DNA of 64,000 bases from Candidatus Poriferihabitaceae bacterium. Its GTDB lineage: Bacteria; Pseudomonadota; Gammaproteobacteria; Arenicellales; Poriferihabitantaceae. The notes beneath the pieces are model-generated. The model did no database searches. It saw only the letters and a list, made by a program, of their open reading frames with translations, and was not told the origin of the DNA. Of the stretch, positions 8,555 through 59,583 are shown piece after piece. The stretch's first letter is position 1. Each line of letters opens with the position of its first letter. Location: positions 6,805 through 70,804 of the forward strand of contig CBDBQB010000033.1 in NCBI GenBank assembly GCA_965209105.1, written 5' to 3'. A program made the translations under genes and the position numbers.

Positions 8555-9924
8555 GCGTCTCCCTCAGCAAGCACATACTCATTTACTAATGCCCGAAAAT
8601 CATCGCCGCGCTCAAGATAGTTTGAATACATGTCAAAACTCGCGCAAGCCGGAGAGAGCAGTACCACGTCACCTTTTTTCGCTTTCTTTTTGGCGAGTAA
8701 AACCGCCGCTTCTAGCGATTCGACCTCAGTGAATGAAACCTTACCGTCGAAAACTGATGCGATTTTTCCCGCGTCTTCTCCCATCAATATAAGGTGCCGG
8801 ATACCCTTGTCCATGACGGGCAGCAATGCAGATAGATCAGCGTTTTTACTTTGGCCGCCCATAATCATGATCTTCGGTTGGGTAAACCCTGATATCGCTG
8901 CTAGCGTTGCACCCACGTTGGTGCCTTTGGAATCATTGACCCACATCACGCCATCGCGCTCGCCAATTTGCTCGCAGCGGTGCGGCAAGCCTTCAAAATC
9001 ACAAGCTGCTTTAATCATCGCTGCGTTGATCGACAAGCCAAACTGCTGCACGATGGCGAAGCTTGCCAGTACGTTGAGCCAATTTTGCTGGCCTTTAATG
9101 CTAAGCTTCGATGTCTCGAGTAATGTCTTGTCGCCCTGCGCCAGCCACGTCTTATCACCCTTTTTGAGCACACCAAAGGCTTGGCTATCTTCAGGCACAT
9201 TTAGGCCAAAACTGATTGAATGCGCTAGGGTGATCTGCGGAGCAGAGGGATCGTTTCGATTAATCACCTCGCCAATGGCATTTCGATATATGCGTAATTT
9301 GGCGTCAAGGTATAACTGATACGCCCCGTATCGATCCATGTGGTCTTCACTTACATTGAGCACCACTGCAACATCCGCAGCCAAGCTCGACGTTGTTTCT
9401 AACTGAAAGCTAGACAGTTCCAATACATAAACATCGGGCGTTGCTTGCGCAAATAAATCTAAAGCGGGAATACCGATATTTCCACCGAGTAAAACCGTCT
9501 TCTTGGCTGCTGTAATCAAACGCTCAACAAGCGTGGCAACCGTACTCTTCCCGTTCGAACCCGTAATCGCAATGATCGGCGCATTTGCGTATCGAACAAA
9601 TAACTCAATATCGCCGATTAACTCGGTTTGAGGCCCAATCTTATCGCGTAAATGGGTCGCTCTAATATCTACGCCCGGACTCACCACCACCATATCTGCA
9701 GTTTCAAGGGTATGTTGATCCAAGCCCCCGGTTACAATGCGCGCCTTGGGGAATAGCCGTTTTAACTCTTTCTTATTCGGCGCGGAATGTCGTGTGTCCA
9801 TCACAATCAACTCAGTGGTCGATTTTTTTAAGTATCGAATAACAGATTGTCCCGTCAAACCAAAGCCAATCACCGCAATTTTCTTATACGGGACGACAGT
9901 GCTGGGTTTTAGAATGGCTTGCAT
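8551..9924 (-). CDS. murD: UDP-N-acetylmuramoylalanine--D-glutamate ligase MurD
   Basis: Mur ligase, GSNGKST P-loop; dcw position; 4-nt overlap with ftsW. Confidence 0.95.
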   Translation of the reverse strand: MQAILKPSTVVPYKKIAVIGFGLTGQSVIRYLKKSTTELIVMDTRHSAPNKKELKRLFPKARIVTGGLDQHTLETADMVVVSPGVDIRATHLRDKIGPQTELIGDIELFVRYANAPIIAITGSNGKSTVATLVERLITAAKKTVLLGGNIGIPALDLFAQATPDVYVLELSSFQLETTSSLAADVAVVLNVSEDHMDRYGAYQLYLDAKLRIYRNAIGEVINRNDPSAPQITLAHSISFGLNVPEDSQAFGVLKKGDKTWLAQGDKTLLETSKLSIKGQQNWLNVLASFAIVQQFGLSINAAMIKAACDFEGLPHRCEQIGERDGVMWVNDSKGTNVGATLAAISGFTQPKIMIMGGQSKNADLSALLPVMDKGIRHLILMGEDAGKIASVFDGKVSFTEVESLEAAVLLAKKKAKKGDVVLLSPACASFDMYSNYLERGDDFRALVNEYVLAEGDA

Positions 9925-9926
9925 AC

Positions 9927-11009
9927 TTATCTAACCTTTAGCGTTGCAAGGCCAATAATGACCAAAATAAAGCTGATGATCCAAAATCGTACGATCACCC
10001 GCGGCTCGGGCCAGCCCTTCAATTCAAAATGATGGTGAATCGGTGCCATCTTAAAGACCCTCCGACCCACCAACTTGAAAGAAATAACTTGGATAATGAC
10101 CGACAAAGTTTCCACCACAAACAAGCCACCCATAATCATCAGGACGACTTCTTGACGGACAATAACCGCCAACACCCCGAGTGCAGCGCCCAATGATAAG
10201 GCACCGATATCACCCATAAATACCTGTGCCGGATAGGCGTTAAACCATAAAAATCCGAGACCCGCCCCCATTAGTGAGGCGCAAAAAATCATCATTTCTC
10301 CCGCACCGACCAAATACGGCACGTTTAGATACTCTGAGTAAATGGTATTACCCGACATATAGCTAAAGATCCCTAAGCCCCCCGCGACCATGACCACCGG
10401 CAATATCGCCAGACCATCCAAGCCATCGGTCAAATTGACCGCATTGCTGCTTCCCACGATAACAAACCACGCCAAAGGAACAAAAACCCAACCCAGATTT
10501 ATCATCACACCCTTGAAAAAGGGCACAAATAGCTGCAGTTCAGCCGGTGCGCTTGCGCTGGCATATAGATAGTAAGCGGCAATAAATCCTGCCACCGACT
10601 GACTCAAGAACTTAGCACCGGAGCCCATGCCCTTAGGATCTTTATTGACCAGTTTTTGATAATCATCGTACCAACCGATCAAGCCAAAACTTAGCGTGAT
10701 AAACAGGGTCACCCATAAATACCGATTGCTTAAGTCCATCCACAACAAGGTTGGAATCACCACTGCAAATAAAATCAACAACCCGCCCATCGTCGGCGTA
10801 CCCACCTTTGAAAAATGCGTCGGCGGGCCATCGTCTCGTACGGTTTGACCAATCTGATATTGACTCAGTTTGCGAATCATCATCGGCCCGAACATAAAAG
10901 ACAGAGTAAGGGCCGTTAACACGCTCATAATGGCGCGAAAGCTAATATATTGAAAAACACTAAATATGCTGTAGTGCTCGGCTAGCCGTTCAAATAACCA
11001 CGTGAGCAT
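9927..11009 (-). CDS. mraY: phospho-N-acetylmuramoyl-pentapeptide transferase MraY
   Basis: Ten-TM MraY sequence ([18 protein letters not shown]). Confidence 0.96.
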
Positions 11010-17360: not shown

Positions 17361-17469
17361 GGTTTTTCAACAAGATACGTTCGATTTAACGGTGAAATAC
17401 CGTCAATATTCTTACCTTATAAATCAAACAGATAAAGAATTTACCTAATTTGAATTAACAAGAAAAAGA

Positions 17470-17830
17470 AGTAAGTTGATCTGTAAGCCGGGTTCTGTCT
17501 AGGACGATCATTCATCTGGGATATTTGTCGCCAAATACCTCATGCAACCTACCCGAAACCAACGCGGGTCGCGCCTTGCTTGGAATAAACCAAGATGGTT
17601 TCCTATTTGGTCTTGCTCCAAGTGGGGTTTACCCTGCCACGACGATTACCCGCCGCGCGGTGCGCTCTTACCGCACCATTTCACCCTTACCCGCCGAAAC
17701 GAGCGGTATATTTTCTGTGGCACTGGCCATCGGCTTGCGCCGCCCAGACGTTATCTGGCACTTTACCCTGCGGAGCCCGGACTTTCCTCGACACTCAAAA
17801 TGAACACCGCGATCGCCCGATCAACTTAGG
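17470..17830 (-). ncRNA. rnpB: RNase P RNA, bacterial type A
   Basis: Minus strand contains GAGGAAAGTCCGGGCTCC (complement at about 17772-17789) and ACAGAACCCGGCTTA near the 3' end. Terminal P1 pairing AAGTTGATC/GATCAACTT. ORFs 17525-17870 lie inside it and are spurious. Ends are approximate. Confidence 0.9.
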
Positions 17831-27307: not shown

Positions 27308-28510
27308 GAGACCGCAGCATAACTCACGATTTCAGTCTGACATTTCCGAAGGGGTCATTTTTTGAATCATATTTGTCGATTTTCGCGTATTTGATCATGA
27401 TTTAGCGACTTTTTATTGATTCGCGCCCCTAAACCCATATTAAAGGCGCAACTATCTTGCATAGTGCCAATCTGGCAAGCCATACAAACTTAAGAATTTA
27501 GCGCCTTTACGGATATTCGCCGCTATCGCCGCTAGGCCGTAAACAGTCGTGTTTTTAGCTAAGCCCATAAACCGAGTCCGAGCTAAACCATAGTGCTGCT
27601 TGTAAGTGGCAAAGGGCCGTTCGCCTCCTGCTCGTGTTACTGCAATAACTGCATTGCGGCTACGGTCTGCATCTGACAACGGATTATCTCGATATCCCTT
27701 GCGTTGAACTTGGTCATCAATTCCAAGTTGCTCCAGTTTATCTCGCGTCTCATGCGAGCTATACGCCGCATCAGCATATAGGGCAGTCTCATCGCCCAAC
27801 AGTAATTCATCGCGCTGCTGACTGTCATGAACATGCCCTGGCGTCACACTCTGGCGCTGAACAAACCCATCCTCATCAACTCCCGTATGCACTGAGTAGC
27901 CATAGGTGGATTTCTTTCGACCTCGGCTGTCATTCTTAACGTGCCAGCTGGCATCAGGATCTCGCTTAGGCGTGCCATCTTTGCCGTTACCATTTCCAGA
28001 ACGAGCCGCTTCTATAGGAGTTGCATCTATAATATTGATACGCCCCTTGCTCATAATAATGTTCTTTGATTCAAGTTGGCGATTGACCTCACCTAGCAAA
28101 CGATCCCATAGCTCGTGCTCTACTAGCTTGCTTCGAAAGCGCCCAAGGGTTGAAGCTTCGGGCACATCACCGCCTAACTCAAAGCGGCAAAACTTACGAA
28201 ACAATAAATCCCTAAATAAGCACTGCGCTAACTCCCTATCCGACAGCTCATACCAAATGCCCAGCATCAAGCTGCGGAACAAACTAAGTAATGGATAGCT
28301 TGGGCGGCCCGTAGTACCAGCGTAAATAGATGACAGCAGCATCTCTATTTCGCTCCAATCTAATAGTGCTTCTGTATCATCAAGGCTATGCAGAATTGGA
28401 TGATCCAAGTCTGATCTTGATACTAATAAATCTCGTTGCGTGGTGAATGGTTTTTGCATGCCTGATTTTAACAAATTATCCGATCGCTCGATGAGTTATG
28501 CTGCACTCTC
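27308..28510 (-). mobile_element. IS5-family insertion sequence, complete copy (about 1.2 kb)
   Basis: Imperfect 18-bp terminal IRs (GAGACCGCAGCATAACTC and GAGTTATGCTGCACTCTC). 5-bp direct duplication AATAC at 27303-27307 and 28511-28515. Single transposase ORF. Confidence 0.9.
27452..28474 (-). CDS. IS5-family DDE transposase
   Basis: InsH-like N-terminal domain plus DDE_Tnp_1-type core (IIDATPIEA, LYADAAYSS, GERPFATYK), 340 aa. Confidence 0.9.
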   Translation of the reverse strand: MLKSGMQKPFTTQRDLLVSRSDLDHPILHSLDDTEALLDWSEIEMLLSSIYAGTTGRPSYPLLSLFRSLMLGIWYELSDRELAQCLFRDLLFRKFCRFELGGDVPEASTLGRFRSKLVEHELWDRLLGEVNRQLESKNIIMSKGRINIIDATPIEAARSGNGNGKDGTPKRDPDASWHVKNDSRGRKKSTYGYSVHTGVDEDGFVQRQSVTPGHVHDSQQRDELLLGDETALYADAAYSSHETRDKLEQLGIDDQVQRKGYRDNPLSDADRSRNAVIAVTRAGGERPFATYKQHYGLARTRFMGLAKNTTVYGLAAIAANIRKGAKFLSLYGLPDWHYAR

Positions 28511-49315: not shown

Positions 49316-49831
49316 ATGTCTAAGCAAAATAAATATAGTTACAAGGAACTTATTGCCTGTGGCCATGGGCAAGTTTTCGGTGACGGCAACGCAAGGCTCC
49401 CCCTGCCCAATATGCTGATGTTTGATCGCATCACACATATTAGTGATGAAGGGGGTGAGTTTGGTAAAGGAGAAATTGTTGCCGAATTGGACGTAAAACC
49501 TGAACTTTGGTTTTTCGATTGTCACTTCGAAACTGACCCGGTGATGCCCGGCTGTTTAGGGCTAGACGCCTTATGGCAGCTCGTTGGATTTTATCTCGGT
49601 TGGATAGGTGGGCCGGGCAGAGGCCGCGCGCTGGGTACCGGCGAAGTAAAATTCACCGGGCAAATATTACCCACCGCTAAAAAAGTTACCTATCGTTTGG
49701 ATTTAAAGCGGGTTATTTCGCGCCGCCTTTATATGGGTATTGCTGACGGCACCGTTGAAGTGGATGGAAGAGTAGTCTACAACTGCAAGGATTTACGCGT
49801 TGGCTTGTTTACCGACACCAGTAGTTTCTAG
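49316..49831 (+). CDS. fabA: 3-hydroxydecanoyl-ACP dehydratase/isomerase FabA
   Basis: [24 protein letters not shown] active-site region; 171 aa. Confidence 0.95.
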
Positions 49832-49841
49832 GGGAAATCAC

Positions 49842-51057
49842 ATGCGTAGAGTCGTCGTCACTGGAATGGGCATTGTCTCCAGCCTAGGAAATCACAAATC
49901 AGAAGTCTTGGAATCGCTTAAGGCTGGGCGCTCAGGGATTGTTGCCGCCCCCGAATACACCGAATTGGGCATGCGCTCTCAAGTTCATGGCAAGATAGAT
50001 ATCGACGCAAAAGGAATAATTGATCGCAAGATATATCGCTTTATGGGCGATGCCGCAGCGTTTACTTATATCGCCATGCAAGAAGCCATTGAAGATTCTG
50101 GTTTGAGCGAGTCGCAAGTTGCTTCTGAGCGAACGGGGCTCATTCTTGGCACCGGCGGTGCGTCGCCTGAAAATATCGTTAAAGCAGCGGACACCCTGCG
50201 CGAACGCGGCGTCAAACGCGTGGGGCCGTATATGGTCACCAAAGCAATGGCCAGCACGGTTCCTGCTTGTATCAGTACGCCATTTAAAATTAAAGGCGTG
50301 TCGTACACCATTTCCTCGGCTTGCTCAACCAGCGCGCATTGTATCGGCCACGGCGCCGAACTGATTCAATTTGGCAAGCAAGATATTGTCTTTGCGGGCG
50401 GTGGAGAAGAAGTCCATTGGTCCTTATCCGTCTTGTTTGACGGCATGGGCGCCATGTCTAGCAATTATAATGACACGCCGCAGCGCGCATCACGCGCCTA
50501 TGATCAAGACCGCGACGGCTTTGTTATCTCTGGCGGCGGTAGCGTTTTGGTACTTGAAGACTTAGACCATGCGCGTGGCACGCGGTGCGACAATTTACGC
50601 CGAACTGAGCGGCTATGGCGCTACCTCTGACGGCTACGATATGGTGCAGCCTTCTGGAGAAGGCGCAGCACGTTGTATGCGTCAAGCCATGCAAACCGTC
50701 GACGCACCCATTGATTATCTGAACGCACACGGCACCAGCACACCCATCGGAGATCTACGCGAACTAGAAGCGATTAAAGAAGTATTTGGGGACAATTCAC
50801 CGAAAATTAGCTCGACCAAATCCTTGTCCGGTCATGCCCTGGGTGCCGCTGGCTCGAATGAAGCGATATACTCATTGCTGATGATGCAAAACGATTTTAT
50901 CGTCGGCTCAGCGAATATAGAAAACTTGGATGAACAAGCCAATGATTTTAAAGTTATCCAAGAGAACCAATACGATACGCGCATAGACACTGTTATGTCG
51001 AACAGCTTTGGTTTTGGTGGCACCAACTGTTCTCTGATTTTTACGCGTTATCGTTAA
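49842..51057 (+). pseudogene. fabB: 3-oxoacyl-ACP synthase I FabB, apparent 1-nt frameshift
   Basis: [17 protein letters not shown] start. ORFs 49800..50630 and 50569..51057 are the two halves. Deleting one base near 50574 gives ...[27 protein letters not shown]..., colinear with FabB. Confidence 0.85.
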
Positions 51058-52384: not shown

Positions 52385-52414
52385 AAAAAAGCGGCGTCCA
52401 GCGCCGCTTTTTTT
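52385..52414. terminator. bidirectional rho-independent terminator
   Basis: AAAAAAAGCGGCG-TCCAG-CGCCGCTTTTTTT lies between convergent genes, with a GC stem flanked by an A-run and a T-run. Confidence 0.8.
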
Positions 52415-52471
52415 ATGCCTGATTGTTAAGGATAGTACACTGTCCAGACCAAATTGATGGATTCAGTGAGC

Positions 52472-53672
52472 TTAGCCATGAAACTTTTTTACCGCGCGAG
52501 TCATTCGTTCTAGGCCGAGTAAAATATCTTCCTCGGACACGATCAGTGGCGGCGCCATCCTCAATACATCTGGACCGGCCACCAAGGGCTAGCACGCCCT
52601 CTTCCATCATCAATCTGACCAGATCACGCGACTTGCCGAGATAGTCGGGCGCTAGCTCGCAACCCATCAACAAGCCCGAGCCGCGGATTTCGGAGAACAC
52701 CTTAAATTCACGATTGAGCGCACCCAAACCTTCTCTAAGTTTTTTGGAGGCGGCTTCAATATGACCCTTCATTTCAGGCGCTAGGACGATCTCTAAGAGC
52801 TTATTTGCAACTGCGCAAGCCAAAGGATTGCCACCAAACGTACTGCCGTGAGCGCCGACAACAAAAGCTTGTGCTATCTCATCTGTCGCAAGTGTTGCTG
52901 CGACGGGGATACCTCCGCCCAAACCTTTGGCGGAACTTAATATATCTGGCGTCACCCCTAAACCCATATACGCATACAATTCGCCCGTTCGCATTACACC
53001 CGTTTGTACCTCATCAAATATCAGCAAAGCATTGTGTTGGTCACATAGCTCGCGGGCAGCTTGCGCAAATTCTGACGTCGCAGGATGCACACCGCTCTCG
53101 CCTTGAATCGGCTCCATGATCACTGCGCAAGTTTGGGCAGATATTGCTTCGCTGAGTGCTTGCACATCGTTAAAAGGGAGGTGCGTAATACCCTCTATTT
53201 TTGGCCCAAACCCTTCACTGTATTTGGGCTGCCCTCCCACGCTAACTGTAAACAAAGTTCGGCCATGAAAGCCATTCTCAAAGGCGATAATCTGAAATTT
53301 CTCTGGGCCATATTGATCATGCGCGTAGCGCCGAGCCAATTTAAGTGCAGCCTCGTTGGCCTCAGAGCCCGAATTCGAAAAAAACACTCGATCTGCAAAG
53401 GTATGCTCTACCAGCGTTTTAGCCAGCTCAATCGCCGGCATATTGGTCAATAAATTACTGACATGCCAGAACTTTTTCGCTTGGTTCGTTAAGGCGCTGA
53501 CGAGTTCTGGATGCGCATGCCCTAAGGCACTTACCGCGATACCCGCGGCAAAATCGATATACTCCTTACCCTGCGTATCCCACAAACGCGCGCCTTGTCC
53601 ATGCGAAGGTAGAATATCCAGCGGCGCGTAATTGGGGAACAAATATTGTTCGTGCATCTGTCGTGTTGTCAT
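52472..53672 (-). pseudogene. argD: acetylornithine/succinylornithine aminotransferase (ArgD/AstC family), apparent 1-nt frameshift near the 3' end
   Basis: Class III aminotransferase (SNSGSEANE, DEVQTG, SSAKGLGGG). Removing one G at about 52582-52583 replaces the nonsense tail with ...VLALVAGPDVLRMAPPLIVSEEDILLGLERMTRAVKKFHG*, ending at 52472. Confidence 0.85.
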
Positions 53673-56367: not shown

Positions 56368-56537
56368 CTTATATTTGCGCACAATCATCCAAGTGGAGTG
56401 TGTGAGCCAAGCAGTTCTGATAAAGCGATTACGAAAAAGCTTCGAGAGGTGTTGTCTCTATTTGAGATTCGCGTTCTTGACCATCTTATTGTCAGTGGCG
56501 AGGAGATTACCTCAATGGAAGAAAAGGGCTTGCTCTA
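56368..56537 (+). pseudogene. RadC/JAB-domain gene, 3' fragment only
   Basis: Translation [57 protein letters not shown] is the C-terminal third of RadC, including HxHPSG...PS..D. A stop codon lies immediately upstream. Confidence 0.8.
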
Positions 56538-56596
56538 AGTGCAACCATCAAGGCTACCGTCAACGTACGGTAGCCTTTAATATTTTCCTTTATAAG

Positions 56597-57376
56597 CTAC
56601 TGTATTTCTTCTAAATTGCTATTTAGTTTTGCAACTCGGTTAGCAATTTTTGCTGCGCGGAGTTGATTATTCGCCAGCTGTTTTCCAATTCGGGAAACTT
56701 TAGTAGCATTAGTAGTGCTTGCACGCTTTGCGGTTAACGCTTCAATTTTCTCGGCTATCTTAGCTTGCTTACCAATCATCTTAGTTAGTTTTGATTCCAG
56801 CTTCGCTTTGTAAGCTTCGATTTGGTCAACTATCGCCTGCTCGTCCGCGACGATCTTTGCATTAAGTGAGGCGATTTTCTCATCTAACTTTATTATTTTG
56901 GATTGCTTTTTACCTAGGTCTTCAGATTTACTTATTAGTGTGGCTTGGATTGCTGCAAGCTCAGTTGGGTCTGTTTCAGCACCAAGTGCAACCTCGAGAT
57001 CATCTATTTCTTCTTGCAAAAGACCAGTATCGGAAACTACGGTTAGGCGCTCACTTAGTTTCTCTAGCTTTTTCTGACGTTTAGAAATTTTAGAAGCCAT
57101 CTTTTCATGGCGCTTTGATTGATGCTCAGCATCTTCTTGATCGATCTCACTATCTTTCATCTGTTCTTCTAGTTCAACATAGCTTTGAAGGACGGGTCGA
57201 TCTTCTGATATGAGTGCCTTGGTTCGCTCTTCCTCGGTCAAAGGTGGTTCAATTGAAAAGGGTGTTGAAGTGGCGGTTAACATATCCGTGCGTAATTCAT
57301 CTTGAGCGTAGATATTTTGTGTAGCCAGTAATGTAAAAATTGCGGTAATCAGTGCGGTTTGTTTTTTCATATCCAT
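56597..57376 (-). CDS. secreted coiled-coil protein, unknown function
   Basis: Signal peptide (…LLATQNIYAQ) followed by long K/E/A/L-rich heptad-like sequence. Confidence 0.6.
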   Translation of the reverse strand: MDMKKQTALITAIFTLLATQNIYAQDELRTDMLTATSTPFSIEPPLTEEERTKALISEDRPVLQSYVELEEQMKDSEIDQEDAEHQSKRHEKMASKISKRQKKLEKLSERLTVVSDTGLLQEEIDDLEVALGAETDPTELAAIQATLISKSEDLGKKQSKIIKLDEKIASLNAKIVADEQAIVDQIEAYKAKLESKLTKMIGKQAKIAEKIEALTAKRASTTNATKVSRIGKQLANNQLRAAKIANRVAKLNSNLEEIQ

Positions 57377-57826
57377 TTATCGGTTCATTGCGTTGTCTAT
57401 TTCTGTTTGGGTAAGTCCCGTTTCAGCGGTGAACTTCTCCATAACGGGTTTGGGTAGCGAGTCCCCAGCATCTGCTGAGAGCTGAGCCTGAATGCGCGTT
57501 CGATTCACTGAGCTACTTGGAACTTCTAGTGGTGTGATGATGGGTAGATCAGGTACTTTTTGTGGTGCACGGGCTGATTCTAAATATGCTTGCATCTGAA
57601 TATCTCGCTTTTCCTGTCGCACTCGCATAGTAGCTATCTTATCTTTGAGATCGGTAATTTCTTGCTTGTGCCTTTGCTTGTTTTCAGCATGATTTGATAA
57701 TGCTTCTCCATCTAGAATGGGGTTCGTTTTTGCCACCTTAGAAGGTTGATGTACATAGGCGAAATAAGCTCCACCTGCCAAAAGAATGGCAAGGGGAAAA
57801 GCAACGATATATAGCTTAATCTTCAT
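57377..57826 (-). CDS. N-terminally membrane-anchored protein, unknown function
   Basis: One TM segment (LYIVAFPLAILLAGGAYFAYV), then a charged helical region. Its stop abuts the start of the coiled-coil gene (TAAATG). Confidence 0.55.
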   Translation of the reverse strand: MKIKLYIVAFPLAILLAGGAYFAYVHQPSKVAKTNPILDGEALSNHAENKQRHKQEITDLKDKIATMRVRQEKRDIQMQAYLESARAPQKVPDLPIITPLEVPSSSVNRTRIQAQLSADAGDSLPKPVMEKFTAETGLTQTEIDNAMNR

Positions 57827-57944
57827 TTTGAGATATCAAGTTGGCTGACCCCTCGATTTTCTTTTGAGATATCAAGTTGGCTGACCCCTCGATTTTCAAG
57901 TTGGCTGACCCCTCGATTTTCAAGTTGGCTGACCCCTCGATTTC
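57827..57944 (-). repeat. tandem array of the junction motif (2 x 35 nt, then 2 x 24 nt)
   Basis: TTTGAGATATCAAGTTGGCTGACCCCTCGATTTTC twice, then AAGTTGGCTGACCCCTCGATTTTC twice. The array fills the gap between two minus-strand genes. Confidence 0.9.
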
Positions 57945-58201
57945 CCTGCGCGATTCCCTGCGCGATTCCCTGCGCGATTCCCTGCGCGATTTCTTCCTCG
58001 ATTTCTATTCGTCCTTGAGCTTTTTGAATACATAGCGAGCGTGAATAAAAAACCAAGGGTTACTGTTATCCAGCCAATGACAGCTAAAATATAACCAAAA
58101 TCATATGTGCCTTGCTGATGCAAGAACACACCCAAAAAACCGACACAACAGCCAGCCAGTGCTATTTTAAAACCTTTGCGATTTCCTCGATTTCTTTTCA
58201 T
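57920..58201 (-). CDS. small two-TM protein with Arg/Asn-rich termini
   Basis: Start at ATG 58201 (ATGA overlap with the upstream gene). The C-terminal about 30 aa is encoded by tandem repeats and ends GKSRGQPT* inside the junction motif. Confidence 0.5.
   Translation of the reverse strand: MKRNRGNRKGFKIALAGCCVGFLGVFLHQQGTYDFGYILAVIGWITVTLGFLFTLAMYSKSSRTNRNRGRNRAGNRAGNRAGNRAGKSRGQPT
57945..57992 (-). repeat. 4 x 12-nt in-frame tandem repeat (CCTGCGCGATTC)
   Basis: Encodes (NRAG)x4 at the C-terminus of the 57920..58201 ORF. Confidence 0.9.
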
Positions 58202-58488
58202 AAAAACCCTTTCCACGCTAATACTATAAAAAAAGCTATCATAGACAATAGTACATTGACTTGAATCATTTTTCTAATTTTCACTCTGTATATAAACTTC
58301 ACCCCTTTTTTGGTTTTCTCTCGTGCTTTCATATCGAGGTAACCCGGTGTACCTGAAAAAAAGAGCGAAGATTTAATACCTTGTCGTCTTAAAAAGAAAT
58401 GGAAAAATATATTCTCAAATATAAATACAAAACCAGAGAGAAGGAACCATATTCCAATAGCGGAAAGAATTAGTTGGTTATAGTCCAT
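58198..58488 (-). CDS. small membrane protein (two TM segments)
   Basis: Start at ATG 58488 (MDYNQLILSAIGIWF...), overlapping the stop of the 87-aa gene (ATGGACTATAA). Confidence 0.5.
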   Translation of the reverse strand: MDYNQLILSAIGIWFLLSGFVFIFENIFFHFFLRRQGIKSSLFFSGTPGYLDMKAREKTKKGVKFIYRVKIRKMIQVNVLLSMIAFFIVLAWKGFL

Positions 58489-58741
58489 CGTGACCAAATA
58501 CCGGTGGTAAAAATGTTGTAGTTGAGGTGCTAACAGCCGCAGGAACTCCCGCAGATACACCTAGAGTCGTGCCTTCCCATAAACGATCAGGACTTGAAAA
58601 AGTTCCTCCTGAAACAATGCCTAGCCCTAAATCTGTGTTATTGAAATCTCCTTGCCATGCGCCGCTCCCATCGCCCCAATTTACCTGAGCAGACCCGCCT
58701 AAGCTAAAGCCTGTGGAGTTTTCAGTGCTTTTATCTCGCAT
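58478..58741 (-). CDS. 87-aa Gly/Ser/Thr-rich protein without signal peptide
   Basis: ATG start 5 nt after the lipoprotein stop; translationally coupled to the two small membrane proteins downstream. Confidence 0.45.
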   Translation of the reverse strand: MRDKSTENSTGFSLGGSAQVNWGDGSGAWQGDFNNTDLGLGIVSGGTFSSPDRLWEGTTLGVSAGVPAAVSTSTTTFLPPVFGHDGL

Positions 58742-58746
58742 AATAG

Positions 58747-59154
58747 CTAGTATTTCCGTATTTCTCTAATCCCAATCTCATCCACTTCTTGGGGCTTAAG
58801 TGATCGTAAGCTATATATATATATATTTTCATGAGACTCTATAAATCGCTCTATATAGTATTTTGCCCATTTCAATTTTTCAGGGCATGTCTCATAGAAA
58901 TAAAAATAGAACCCATCATCAGATATCTTTGTCATTCCCGGCAAGTACTTGATACGCCTATTATTGCTGATGTTATCCTTTATCATAAAGGAAGCAATCC
59001 AATCAGCACCAATCGTTCCAAACCCTCCGCCTGATTTAGGGCTATCTACAGAAATAATACACTTCTTGTAATCATAGTTGTATTCTTCAGTGACAGTTCC
59101 ACAGCTTGCTACAAACAAGACCAATAAAACCACGATACTTAAAATGCTCTTCAT
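58747..59154 (-). CDS. small lipoprotein (candidate orphan immunity protein)
   Basis: Lipobox FVASC; 135 aa. Directly follows the truncated toxin remnant and a junction motif. Confidence 0.6.
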   Translation of the reverse strand: MKSILSIVVLLVLFVASCGTVTEEYNYDYKKCIISVDSPKSGGGFGTIGADWIASFMIKDNISNNRRIKYLPGMTKISDDGFYFYFYETCPEKLKWAKYYIERFIESHENIYIYSLRSLKPQEVDEIGIREIRKY

Positions 59155-59187
59155 TTGAGATAACTTCTTATCATTAGTGCCTAGTCT

Positions 59188-59313
59188 TCAAGTTGGCTGA
59201 CCCCTCGATTTTCCCAAAACACCCGTCACAAAGCCGTCTCCAAAATTTCCACCACTCAATCTCATTGGTAGCGCATCATTCTGATCACTTTCTTGCTGTC
59301 CACATTGTAAAAC
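59188..59313 (-). pseudogene. remnant of an Rhs C-terminal region
   Basis: Start-less frame reads ...LPMRLSGGNFGDGFVTGVLGKSRGQPT*. SGGNFGDGFVTGV parallels VGGSFEDGFVTGV of the main Rhs CT (aa 1062-1074). It ends inside a junction-motif copy (59188-59213). Confidence 0.65.
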
Positions 59314-59389
59314 ACATCAACTACATTTCCTCCACCTAACACGCCATTCTCTTTCATATTATTAGTTATATCGGTATTTTCTGCTTTGA

Positions 59390-59581
59390 TTAATCAAAAC
59401 CCAATCCACTCCCAGGGCTGCTATACCTAAGCTCTATATTTCCCCCGTCGTAACTCCACCCTAGTTCATCTTTTAGGTATTGCATGATACGATTTGTCTC
59501 TTCACAGCTTAGAACTGTATTGTTTGCTATTGATAGCGAAGAAATAAAAAACAGTCCCGTAAGAATAATTTTTTTCAACAT
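59390..59581 (-). CDS. 63-aa secreted protein (candidate orphan immunity protein)
   Basis: Start MLKKIILTGLFFISSLSIA at ATG 59581, overlapping the double stop of the orphan toxin frame (TAATAATG). Confidence 0.5.
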   Translation of the reverse strand: MLKKIILTGLFFISSLSIANNTVLSCEETNRIMQYLKDELGWSYDGGNIELRYSSPGSGLGFD

Positions 59582-59583
59582 TA

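Follow-up and report, generated by a model that had tools for sequence, protein, structure and literature searches.

Co-oriented copies of a 24-nt motif at gene junctions of an Rhs orphan toxin/immunity array, with an identical copy beside a duplicated gene end in a second genome

Poole et al. (2011, PMC3150448) and Koskiniemi et al. (2014, PMC3967940) described arrays of orphan C-terminal (CT)/immunity genes behind rhs and cdiA, in which exchange takes place through a repeat that is the conserved coding sequence, namely, VENN or the Rhs core (PMC3150448, PMC3967940). The rAID-1 arrays of Bacteroidales harbor a XerD-family recombinase at their head and a repetitive motif in most of their intergenic regions (Ross et al., bioRxiv 10.1101/471110; PMC12247911). 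Here we analyzed a 64,000-nt stretch of contig CBDBQB010000033.1 of Candidatus Poriferihabitaceae bacterium (the window, to which all positions refer), in which an original prediction made from the sequence alone had singled out a short motif repeated in tandem within an Rhs island. The island contains an rhs gene with RHS repeats and a cleavage motif, followed by a fragment homologous to the Rhs pre-toxin region and then by small open reading frames (ORFs); the locus itself is a standard Rhs orphan array with one added feature, the motif. Homology of conserved coding sequence is taken to underlie the assembly and reshuffling of orphan toxin/immunity arrays, and a separate, noncoding motif at their breakpoints would point elsewhere, all the more so if it also marks a replaced gene end in another genome.

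Alignment of all copies yielded a conserved core, (A)TCAAGTTGGCTGACCCCTCGATTT, which reads (G)AAAATCGAGGGGTCAGCCAACTTGA on the minus strand and to which the long form of the motif adds an extra TATCTCAAA(A). The core TCAAGTTGGCTGACCCCTCGATTT occurs in four tandem copies at 57836-57943, arranged as two 36-nt units followed by two 24-nt units, once more at 59188-59211 and, with three mismatches, at 36725-36748. All core copies in the window, five exact and one with the three mismatches, are on the + strand and are therefore co-oriented, while none was expected by chance. TRF called two arrays with 100% matches and a score of 144 each, one of 36 nt x2.0 at 57826-57897 and one of 24 nt x3.0 at 57872-57943. 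The 24-mer AAGTTGGCTGACCCCTCGATTTTC was found on the + strand without mismatch at 57838, 57874, 57898, and 59190 and with one mismatch at 57922, but in none of 100 shuffled sequences; TRF and 24-mer matching thus agreed on the tandem copies at 57827-57944 and on the single copy at 59188-59213 that had been predicted. On the minus strand, which carries all genes and ORFs of the island, the final long-form unit stops 9 nt short of the ATG of a gene encoding a 149-aa protein.

The array is accompanied by further repeats that the original prediction had overlooked. A 12-nt tandem array, TTCCCTGCGCGA x4.2 at 57942-57991 (TRF), directly adjoins the motif array, has the ending CGATT(T/C)C in common with the motif, and on the minus strand constitutes the (NRAG)n of a 98-aa ORF, the last eight codons and stop of which (GKSRGQPT-stop) are supplied by the first motif copy. 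A 17-nt repeat pair (57994-58010 and 58183-58199) brackets the two-transmembrane body of this ORF, for which a homologue search gave no match. Finally, the 9-mer CCTCGATTT occurs eight times in the 64 kb, all eight copies being on the + strand and inside 57851-59805. A single ORF, that of 98 aa, translates this 9-mer as K-S-R within the motif copies and as N-R-G at 58193 and 58004, and since the 9-mer is read in two frames, its recurrence is a feature of the DNA and not imposed by the protein. A second minus-strand frame (57823-58056) is open across the whole 12/24/36-nt array (..IAQGIAQG..NRGVSQLENRGVSQLDISK-stop), and its TGA overlaps the ATG of the 149-aa gene (ATGA); the open second frame is probably an accident of unit lengths divisible by three.

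The clearest breakpoint lies at the single copy in the island, here called A. Comparison of a pre-toxin remnant (59261-59216) with the main rhs gene (60803-60757) gave about 77% identity over 47 nt; this homology stops at ..GGTGTTTT, and copy A begins immediately after. The canonical end of the pre-toxin region is FSRAFN, both in the main Rhs protein and in P0010 and P0011, the two relatives of this region found among 5.8 billion proteins, neither of which contains GKSRG, and the remnant is therefore cut five to six codons early. Its frame is closed by the TGA of the motif (GVL-GKSRGQPT-stop), so that, as predicted, the same peptide ends two minus-strand frames, that of the remnant and that of the 98-aa ORF at 57920-58216. 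A half-copy farther into the island, here called B, and copy A have the string TG(T/A)TTT(G)GG(A/C)AAATCGAGGGG in common and diverge right after GGGG, while the array, a diverged copy at 36.7 kb, and the copy in a second genome (L019, see below) are alike in the core and right half and differ on the left side. Since B keeps the left half and the other copies keep the core and right half, the breakpoints cluster at both edges of an 11-nt core. L019, A, and the array all have a broken gene piece on the CGATTT side; on the TCAAG side, the distance to an intact gene end is 34 nt in L019, 33 nt at A, and 9 nt at the array.

To find the motif elsewhere, we scanned one genome per species, 185,579 species in all, with TTGGCTRACCCCTCGATYT. 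This gave 23 stretches: 12 represented one conserved Stenotrophomonas site, 10 were singletons, and one was L019. The singletons were dropped, as their flanks were unrelated and about 17 such matches were expected by chance. L019, on contig JABSQO010000009.1 of a Methylophagaceae metagenome-assembled genome, is the sole true relative and has one copy, identical to the motif over 25/25 nt. The match consists of a 19-mer seed extended by 6 nt, the chance of which is about 0.003 given about 12 independent seed hits. Here the motif lies 34 nt past the stop of a CBS-domain gene, and 5 nt beyond it there is a second copy of the last ~85 nt of the same gene, ~70% identical, with an 8-nt indel and frameshifted. 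Judged from this arrangement, the CBS gene appears to have acquired a new 3' end while its old one stayed in place downstream, the motif occupying the distal joint. No recombinase was found in the 2.9 kb available. Metagenome scans gave no matches and then four chance matches, one being a tRNA-Cys terminator hairpin (L031), a viral scan and plasmid BLAST gave chance matches only, and a literature search for the motif sequence itself returned nothing. As far as could be checked, with one copy in one true relative among all species scanned, the motif is not the ubiquitous repetitive extragenic palindromic (REP)-type element that the original prediction had named as the refuting case.

The remaining copies in the window differ in form and setting. 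At A, the core and the TATCTCAAA extension are ~23 to 25 nt apart, and TATCTCAAA(A) followed by ATGAAGA is present both here and at the array. The prediction that two cassettes begin after the motif therefore holds for the start context, ATCTCAAA(A)TGAAGA at 57.83 and 59.15 kb, but not for the cassettes, since the 149-aa gene and the 259-aa gene behind it are not an Rhs cassette and occur elsewhere without the motif. Half-copy B, predicted as a variant at 59791-59811, is indeed related to the motif, as it contains the exact 11-mer CCCCTCGATTT and matches at 15 of 17 positions over repeat D8; it comprises, however, only the left half of the motif in the minus-strand reading (TTTGGCAAATCGAGGGG), at 59795-59811, and diverges thereafter. 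B lies 18 nt past the stop of an immunity-like ORF and 45 nt ahead of the ATG of an orphan toxin. Just ahead of the orphan toxin, it includes a run of eight C (59795-59802), or eight G in the minus-strand reading, which may be a site of slippage or of sequencing error and would then fix the frame in which the 5' extension of the toxin is read. The 36.7-kb copy also proved to be real, with 21/24 positions identical to the core over 36725-36748 (nhmmer E = 1.2e-8), TTGGCTAACCCCTCGAT at 36730-36746, an exact match there to TTGGCTRACCCCTCGAT, and a long-form extension of the form TATTCAAA. It is located in a 566-nt noncoding stretch, 220 nt upstream of a 604-aa ORF interrupted by an insertion sequence (IS). 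Left of it, also in noncoding DNA, an 11-nt perfect inverted repeat (GTCCCCCGAAC/GTTCGGGGGAC, 36469-36479 and 36629-36639, 150 nt apart) could be a small element of the miniature inverted-repeat transposable element (MITE) type or a structured element. Within the island, the motif or half-motif is present at three junctions (59.80, 59.19, and 57.83 kb), to which an nhmmer profile added no more copies, and hence at two to three of roughly nine gene junctions. In agreement with the prediction, the motif is nonrandom, confined to accessory DNA, and located at junctions of the Rhs orphan array.

On the basis of these findings, we tentatively favor a reading in which the motif, acting at the DNA level, is a junction repeat specific to the lineage and present in few copies, with recombination at AAATCGAGG(GG) and with slippage making the array. 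Recombination would have been resolved repeatedly at or beside the short core AAATCGAGG(GG), leaving a truncated gene piece on the CGATTT side and an intact gene end 9 to 35 nt off on the TCAAG side, and the TGA of the core, in one frame, would have closed the fused frame (GKSRGQPT-stop). The 36-, 24-, and 12-nt tandem arrays would be replication-slippage products seeded on the same short repeat, an origin suggested by the 100% identity of the units and by their periods of 12, 24, and 36 nt. The motif would thereby mark the breakpoints of joined segments at the decaying downstream end of the Rhs orphan toxin/immunity array. Most likely, it promotes or marks recombination via short homology, without a dedicated enzyme, and slippage is likewise the most likely source of the array.

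The features of the locus are collected in Table 1. The visible part of the main rhs ORF comprises 1,219 aa and carries RHS repeats and the DPSGYFF cleavage motif. In the Rhs C-terminal region (60700-61500, minus strand), DPSGYFF is followed by a Lys-rich amphipathic stretch of ~45 residues (KKLFKSIKKVFKK...), then by a long Gly/Ala-rich hydrophobic region and by GGxFxxGF repeats ahead of the toxin. The GC content is 0.397 at 58-60 kb versus about 0.48 elsewhere, and this low-GC stretch, with RHS repeats and a weakly JAB-like orphan toxin that in a homologue search matched only itself, constitutes a foreign setting. On its other side, the array adjoins the 149-aa gene, whose product has eight relatives among 1.84 billion representatives. 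The 149-aa/259-aa gene order recurs at three loci (L024, L025, and L026), all without the motif, in L025 beside RadC and an IS3 transposase; this module is a rare, mobile-element-associated gene pair and not an Rhs cassette. In the window, a 46-aa RadC-like C-terminal fragment lies at 56398-56538 on the + strand and is followed by a strong 11-bp hairpin (AAGGCTACCGT...ACGGTAGCCTT, 56550-56577), which together look like a mobile-element remnant between a cytochrome c gene and the 259-aa gene. Because the gene pair occurs elsewhere free of the motif, what the array separates is a mobile-element remnant and the Rhs orphan array rather than a pair of Rhs cassettes.

Table 1. Motif copies, accompanying repeats, and genes of the Rhs island and its surroundings
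Feature	Position	Strand	Basis
Diverged long-form copy, TTTGAATATCAATTTGGCTAACCCCTCGATCT	36717..36748	+	Motif matching, nhmmer, sequence
259-aa gene, second of a rare pair with the 149-aa gene	56597-57376	-	Contexts
Gene of 149-aa membrane-anchored protein (N-terminal anchor), directly after the array	57377..57826	-	Homologue search, contexts
Two tandem 36-nt long-form units, each TTTTGAGATATC + AAGTTGGCTGACCCCTCGATTTTC	57826..57897	+	TRF, sequence
Two more 24-nt core units, the last with a CC end, not TC	57898..57945	+	TRF, 24-mer matching, repeat comparison (family D1)
98-aa ORF, small predicted two-transmembrane protein, ends (NRAG)4-GKSRGQPT-stop	57920..58216	-	Translation
12-nt array TTCCCTGCGCGA x4.2, decaying into TTCCTCGATTTC	57942..58003	+	TRF, translation, repeat comparison (D2)
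17-nt direct repeat copy 1, TTCCTCGATTTCTATTC, with 9-mer core CCTCGATTT	57994..58010	+	D7, 16/17 identical to partner
17-nt direct repeat copy 2, TTCCTCGATTTCTTTTC, 189 nt from copy 1	58183..58199	+	Repeat comparison
120-aa membrane ORF	58560-58198	-	ORF table
Gly-rich 87-aa ORF	58741-58478	-	ORF table
135-aa lipoprotein	59154-58747	-	ORF table
TCTTCATTTGAGATAAC, start codon of the 135-aa lipoprotein gene plus TATCTCAAA extension of the long form	59150..59166	+	Sequence comparison
Single exact core copy A; on the minus strand, after the Rhs pre-toxin remnant	59188..59213	+	24-mer matching, translation, alignment
Rhs pre-toxin remnant (..SGGNFGDGFVTGVL)	59216..59261	-	Alignment, translation
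67-aa ORF	59593-59390	-	ORF table
59-aa orphan toxin, HTHPS motif, weak JAB match	59763-59584	-	Domain search
Half-copy B, CCCCTCGATTTGCCAAA	59795..59811	+	Sequence, D8, alignment
Immunity-like ORF	60339-59830	-	ORF table
Main rhs gene (N terminus beyond the window)	60321..63980	-	PF05593 E = 1.4e-15; DPSGYFF; pre-toxin end GVFSRAFNDN

A related orphan-Rhs locus (L027) has an IS 90% identical and an Rhs pre-toxin region 66% identical to those of the window. By motif matching and nhmmer, the motif is absent from this locus as well as from the gene-pair loci L024 to L026, and neither L025 nor L027 contains comparable tandem arrays. At 8855-10567 of its 1.44-Mb contig, L027 harbors an orphan Rhs pre-toxin/toxin ORF that adjoins a truncated Aminotran_3 gene, in a neighborhood with an IS5-like element and genes for a TIR protein, a tyrosine integrase, and IS91-type (Y2_Tnp) proteins, i.e., a rearranged orphan locus without the motif. 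The corresponding element of the window, a 1,137-bp IS of the IS5/IS1182 type (DDE_Tnp_1 and DUF772), is present in two 100% identical inverted copies (27308-28444 and 37226-38362), and at copy 1 the alignment with L027 reaches 28516. A 19-bp sequence, ACATAATCAACTTCAAAAT, is directly duplicated on either side of copy 2, and removal of this copy together with one duplicate restores the uninterrupted 604-aa ORF (36969-37225 plus 38382-39939), which has no match in Pfam or NCBIfam. Elsewhere in the window, two overlapping ORFs (49800-50630 and 50569-51057) encode the N- and C-terminal parts of a split fabB-like ketoacyl synthase, and an argD-like aminotransferase (52413-53672) has an odd C-terminal tail; both genes are either frameshift pseudogenes or assembly indel errors.

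The motif was also compared with described classes of repeats. It is not a clustered regularly interspaced short palindromic repeat (CRISPR) array, since its units are head to tail without spacers and the 12 nt between two long units are themselves repeated. An integron attC site requires an inverted pair R'' (RYYYAAC) ... R' (GTTRRRY) in an imperfect palindrome of about 57 to 141 nt; GTTGGCT and AGCCAAC each match 6/7 of the core consensus, but in one orientation, with no inverted partner, no palindrome, and no significant hairpin. Both exclusions had been made in the original prediction. REP elements and bacterial interspersed mosaic elements (BIMEs) were rejected because the motif is not palindromic, has three loci in 64 kb, and has one copy in one genome among the species representatives. 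For an intrinsic terminator, no terminator-like site was called at any copy, and the motif is similar to no more than a single arm of such a hairpin (cf. the tRNA-Cys terminator of L031, which is unrelated). The ends of the IS5-like element at 37226-38362, ~480 nt from the 36.7-kb copy, are unrelated to the motif. Sigma-54 and sigma-70 promoters, dif/Xer sites, Tn3-type inverted repeats, Tn7-type ends, iterons, and G-quadruplexes were dropped by sequence inspection, owing to misfits in spacing, symmetry, orientation, or key bases. There are no tRNA genes in the window that might serve as attachment sites.

Recombination through short homology explains the local pattern well but explains the dispersal of the motif to L019 and to 36.7 kb poorly, and two alternatives are serious for this reason. 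Several observations weigh against our preferred reading. The independent loci number only four (three in the window plus L019), and just A and L019 abut a demonstrable gene fragment; a passive process leaves the identical 25 nt at the unrelated L019 locus, or the 36.7-kb site, unexplained; the nearest 35 nt around the 36.7-kb copy contain no intact gene end; L027 is free of the motif despite its similar IS and pre-toxin region; and copy number and distribution in the source genome were judged from the 64-kb window, which was the whole of the census. Instead, the motif might be a site dedicated to site-specific recombination, whether as an att-like core or as a cassette junction of the integron or rAID kind. 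A recombinase encoded outside the window would then insert, excise, or swap segments at the core AAATCGAGGGG, and the direct repeats may be successive attL/attR-type sites. We give this a low but appreciable probability, given that every copy is in direct orientation, that breakpoints lie on both sides of one 11-nt core, and that the 25/25 match of L019 adjoins a gene with a replaced 3' end whose old end was kept. Such a pattern is left by e14 and phage 21 at icd and by other elements whose integration site is the 3' end of a gene. Moreover, A and B have the same codon phase in the core, such that A-left joined to B-right gives an open pre-toxin-toxin frame, and the short, AT-rich genes of one orientation, with a motif repeated between them, are reminiscent of rAID-1. 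However, the cognate recombinase that might have been expected near the copies was not found: the Pfam-scanned ORFs of about 21 to 64 kb contain no tyrosine or serine recombinase, only the IS transposase (the island continues beyond 64000), and the L019 contig piece contains none either. In addition, dyad symmetry, which recombinase core sites have, is missing from the motif, where there is just a 6-bp imperfect repeat around an 11-nt spacer, the motif occupies a minority of the junctions, integration of a circle cannot yield a head-to-tail array of 24-nt period, and L027 has an integrase but no motif. A bolder version, in which the motif is the crossover site of an undescribed Methylophagaceae cassette-exchange system whose recombinase, encoded elsewhere, uses AAATCGAGGGG to insert, excise, and swap gene-end modules, is improbable; if true, the modules would be the toxin/immunity cassettes behind rhs and the replacement 3' ends of ordinary genes such as the L019 CBS gene, in an integron-like system without attC hairpins.

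Somewhat less probable than a dedicated site, though likewise serious, is that the motif is the terminal sequence, or a set of arm-type integrase-binding repeats, of a small decayed mobile or integrative element; the motif may then be one end of the incoming DNA, the other end having been resolved by homologous recombination inside the target gene. The constant polarity of L019, A, and the array, each with a truncated target on the CGATTT side and an intact incoming gene end on the TCAAG side, would fit, as would the mobile-element-type module next to the array (the L025 pair beside RadC and IS3, the RadC fragment in the window) and the sporadic occurrence of the motif, but no inverted partner end, target-site duplication, or transposase could be tied to any copy, nhmmer found none in the homologous contexts L025 and L027, and the conserved sequence crosses the presumed boundary, with AAATCGA lying outside a GGGG-type end. 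We ranked two further explanations lower. A neutral local minisatellite without any role in recombination, i.e., one junction scar followed by segmental duplication in the island, with the distant copies due to chance or to assembly artifacts, would account for the perfectly identical units with periods that are multiples of 12 and for the downstream ATG context common to A and the array, which segmental duplication would leave, and likely frameshifts elsewhere in the assembly (e.g., the fabB split at 49800-51057) also speak for it; we nevertheless think it improbable, as local duplication reaches neither L019, with its low chance probability, nor the 36.7-kb copy, with its low E value and its long-form extension. 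Least probable of all is an element acting at the RNA level on the minus-strand transcript, be it a terminator or processing site, a translational start context, or a repeat antitoxin like ToxI. ToxI consists of tandem 36-nt repeats upstream of toxN in a type III toxin-antitoxin system. The array does have this layout, being upstream of and co-oriented with 57377-57826 and 9 nt before its ATG, the motif lies 9 to 33 nt upstream of two start codons with a common context, and the four-unit minus-strand array folds at z = -2.54. Yet a single unit folds at -6.6 kcal/mol with z = -1.28, 29 of 200 shuffles folding as well, and the predicted 6-bp RNA stem, which appears in the centroid structure only and loses one pair without compensation in the 36.7-kb variant, is not borne out. 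Rfam gave no match in the island at E <= 1 and, at the gathering threshold, only RNase P in the whole window (17468-17828). The ToxI-like antitoxin was rejected because the 149-aa protein has no ToxN/AbiQ/CptN/TenpN-type or other match in Pfam, NCBIfam, or PADLOC and its homologues lack arrays; the L019 and 36.7-kb copies, moreover, are not upstream of comparable genes. We thus retain a junction repeat acting through short homology as our tentative reading.

As a sequence that recurs at breakpoints, the motif could provide a further, sequence-directed way of exchanging gene ends and could also serve as a marker by which such events are found; should it be no more than a scar prone to slippage, it would be nothing beyond what decaying islands ordinarily produce. 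Compared with known systems, the array resembles bacterial minisatellites, i.e., variable-number tandem repeats (VNTRs) that arise by slipped-strand mispairing, in its perfect, head-to-tail, nested 12-, 24-, and 36-nt units with one short seed in common, but differs from them in that the same unit is also found at three further loci, each with a single copy and one belonging to a second genome. Like ToxI, it has tandem 36-nt units immediately upstream of a same-strand gene; unlike ToxI, it precedes a membrane-anchored protein without a ToxN/AbiQ-type match, whose homologues lack repeats, and single copies of the motif exist elsewhere. The L019 gene, with a new 3' end and the old, diverged end just downstream, recalls the replacement of gene 3' ends by e14 and phage 21 at icd, except that the two copies are a mere 60 nt or so apart, motif included, with no element and no integrase. 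The locus matches the orphan arrays of rhs and cdiA in having, behind a full-length rhs gene, toxin-fragment ORFs and small immunity-like ORFs in the same orientation, with pre-toxin homology kept by one fragment, but the recurring sequence here is a 24-nt, largely noncoding one that starts where the Rhs homology stops and that is also found outside the island and in an unrelated gene context. With rAID-1 and integron arrays, finally, the locus has in common its co-oriented, short genes related to interbacterial toxins, its skewed, low GC content, and an intergenic repeat near start codons; it differs from these in that no XerD- or IntI-type recombinase is seen in the window (the upstream end of the island lies outside), in that the motif is confined to two or three junctions, and in that it has no inverted R''/R' core pair, no palindrome, and a tandem array without spacer genes. 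Two of the three defining features of rAID-1 are thus absent or out of view here, but the repetitive intergenic motif of these arrays is the nearest described analogue.

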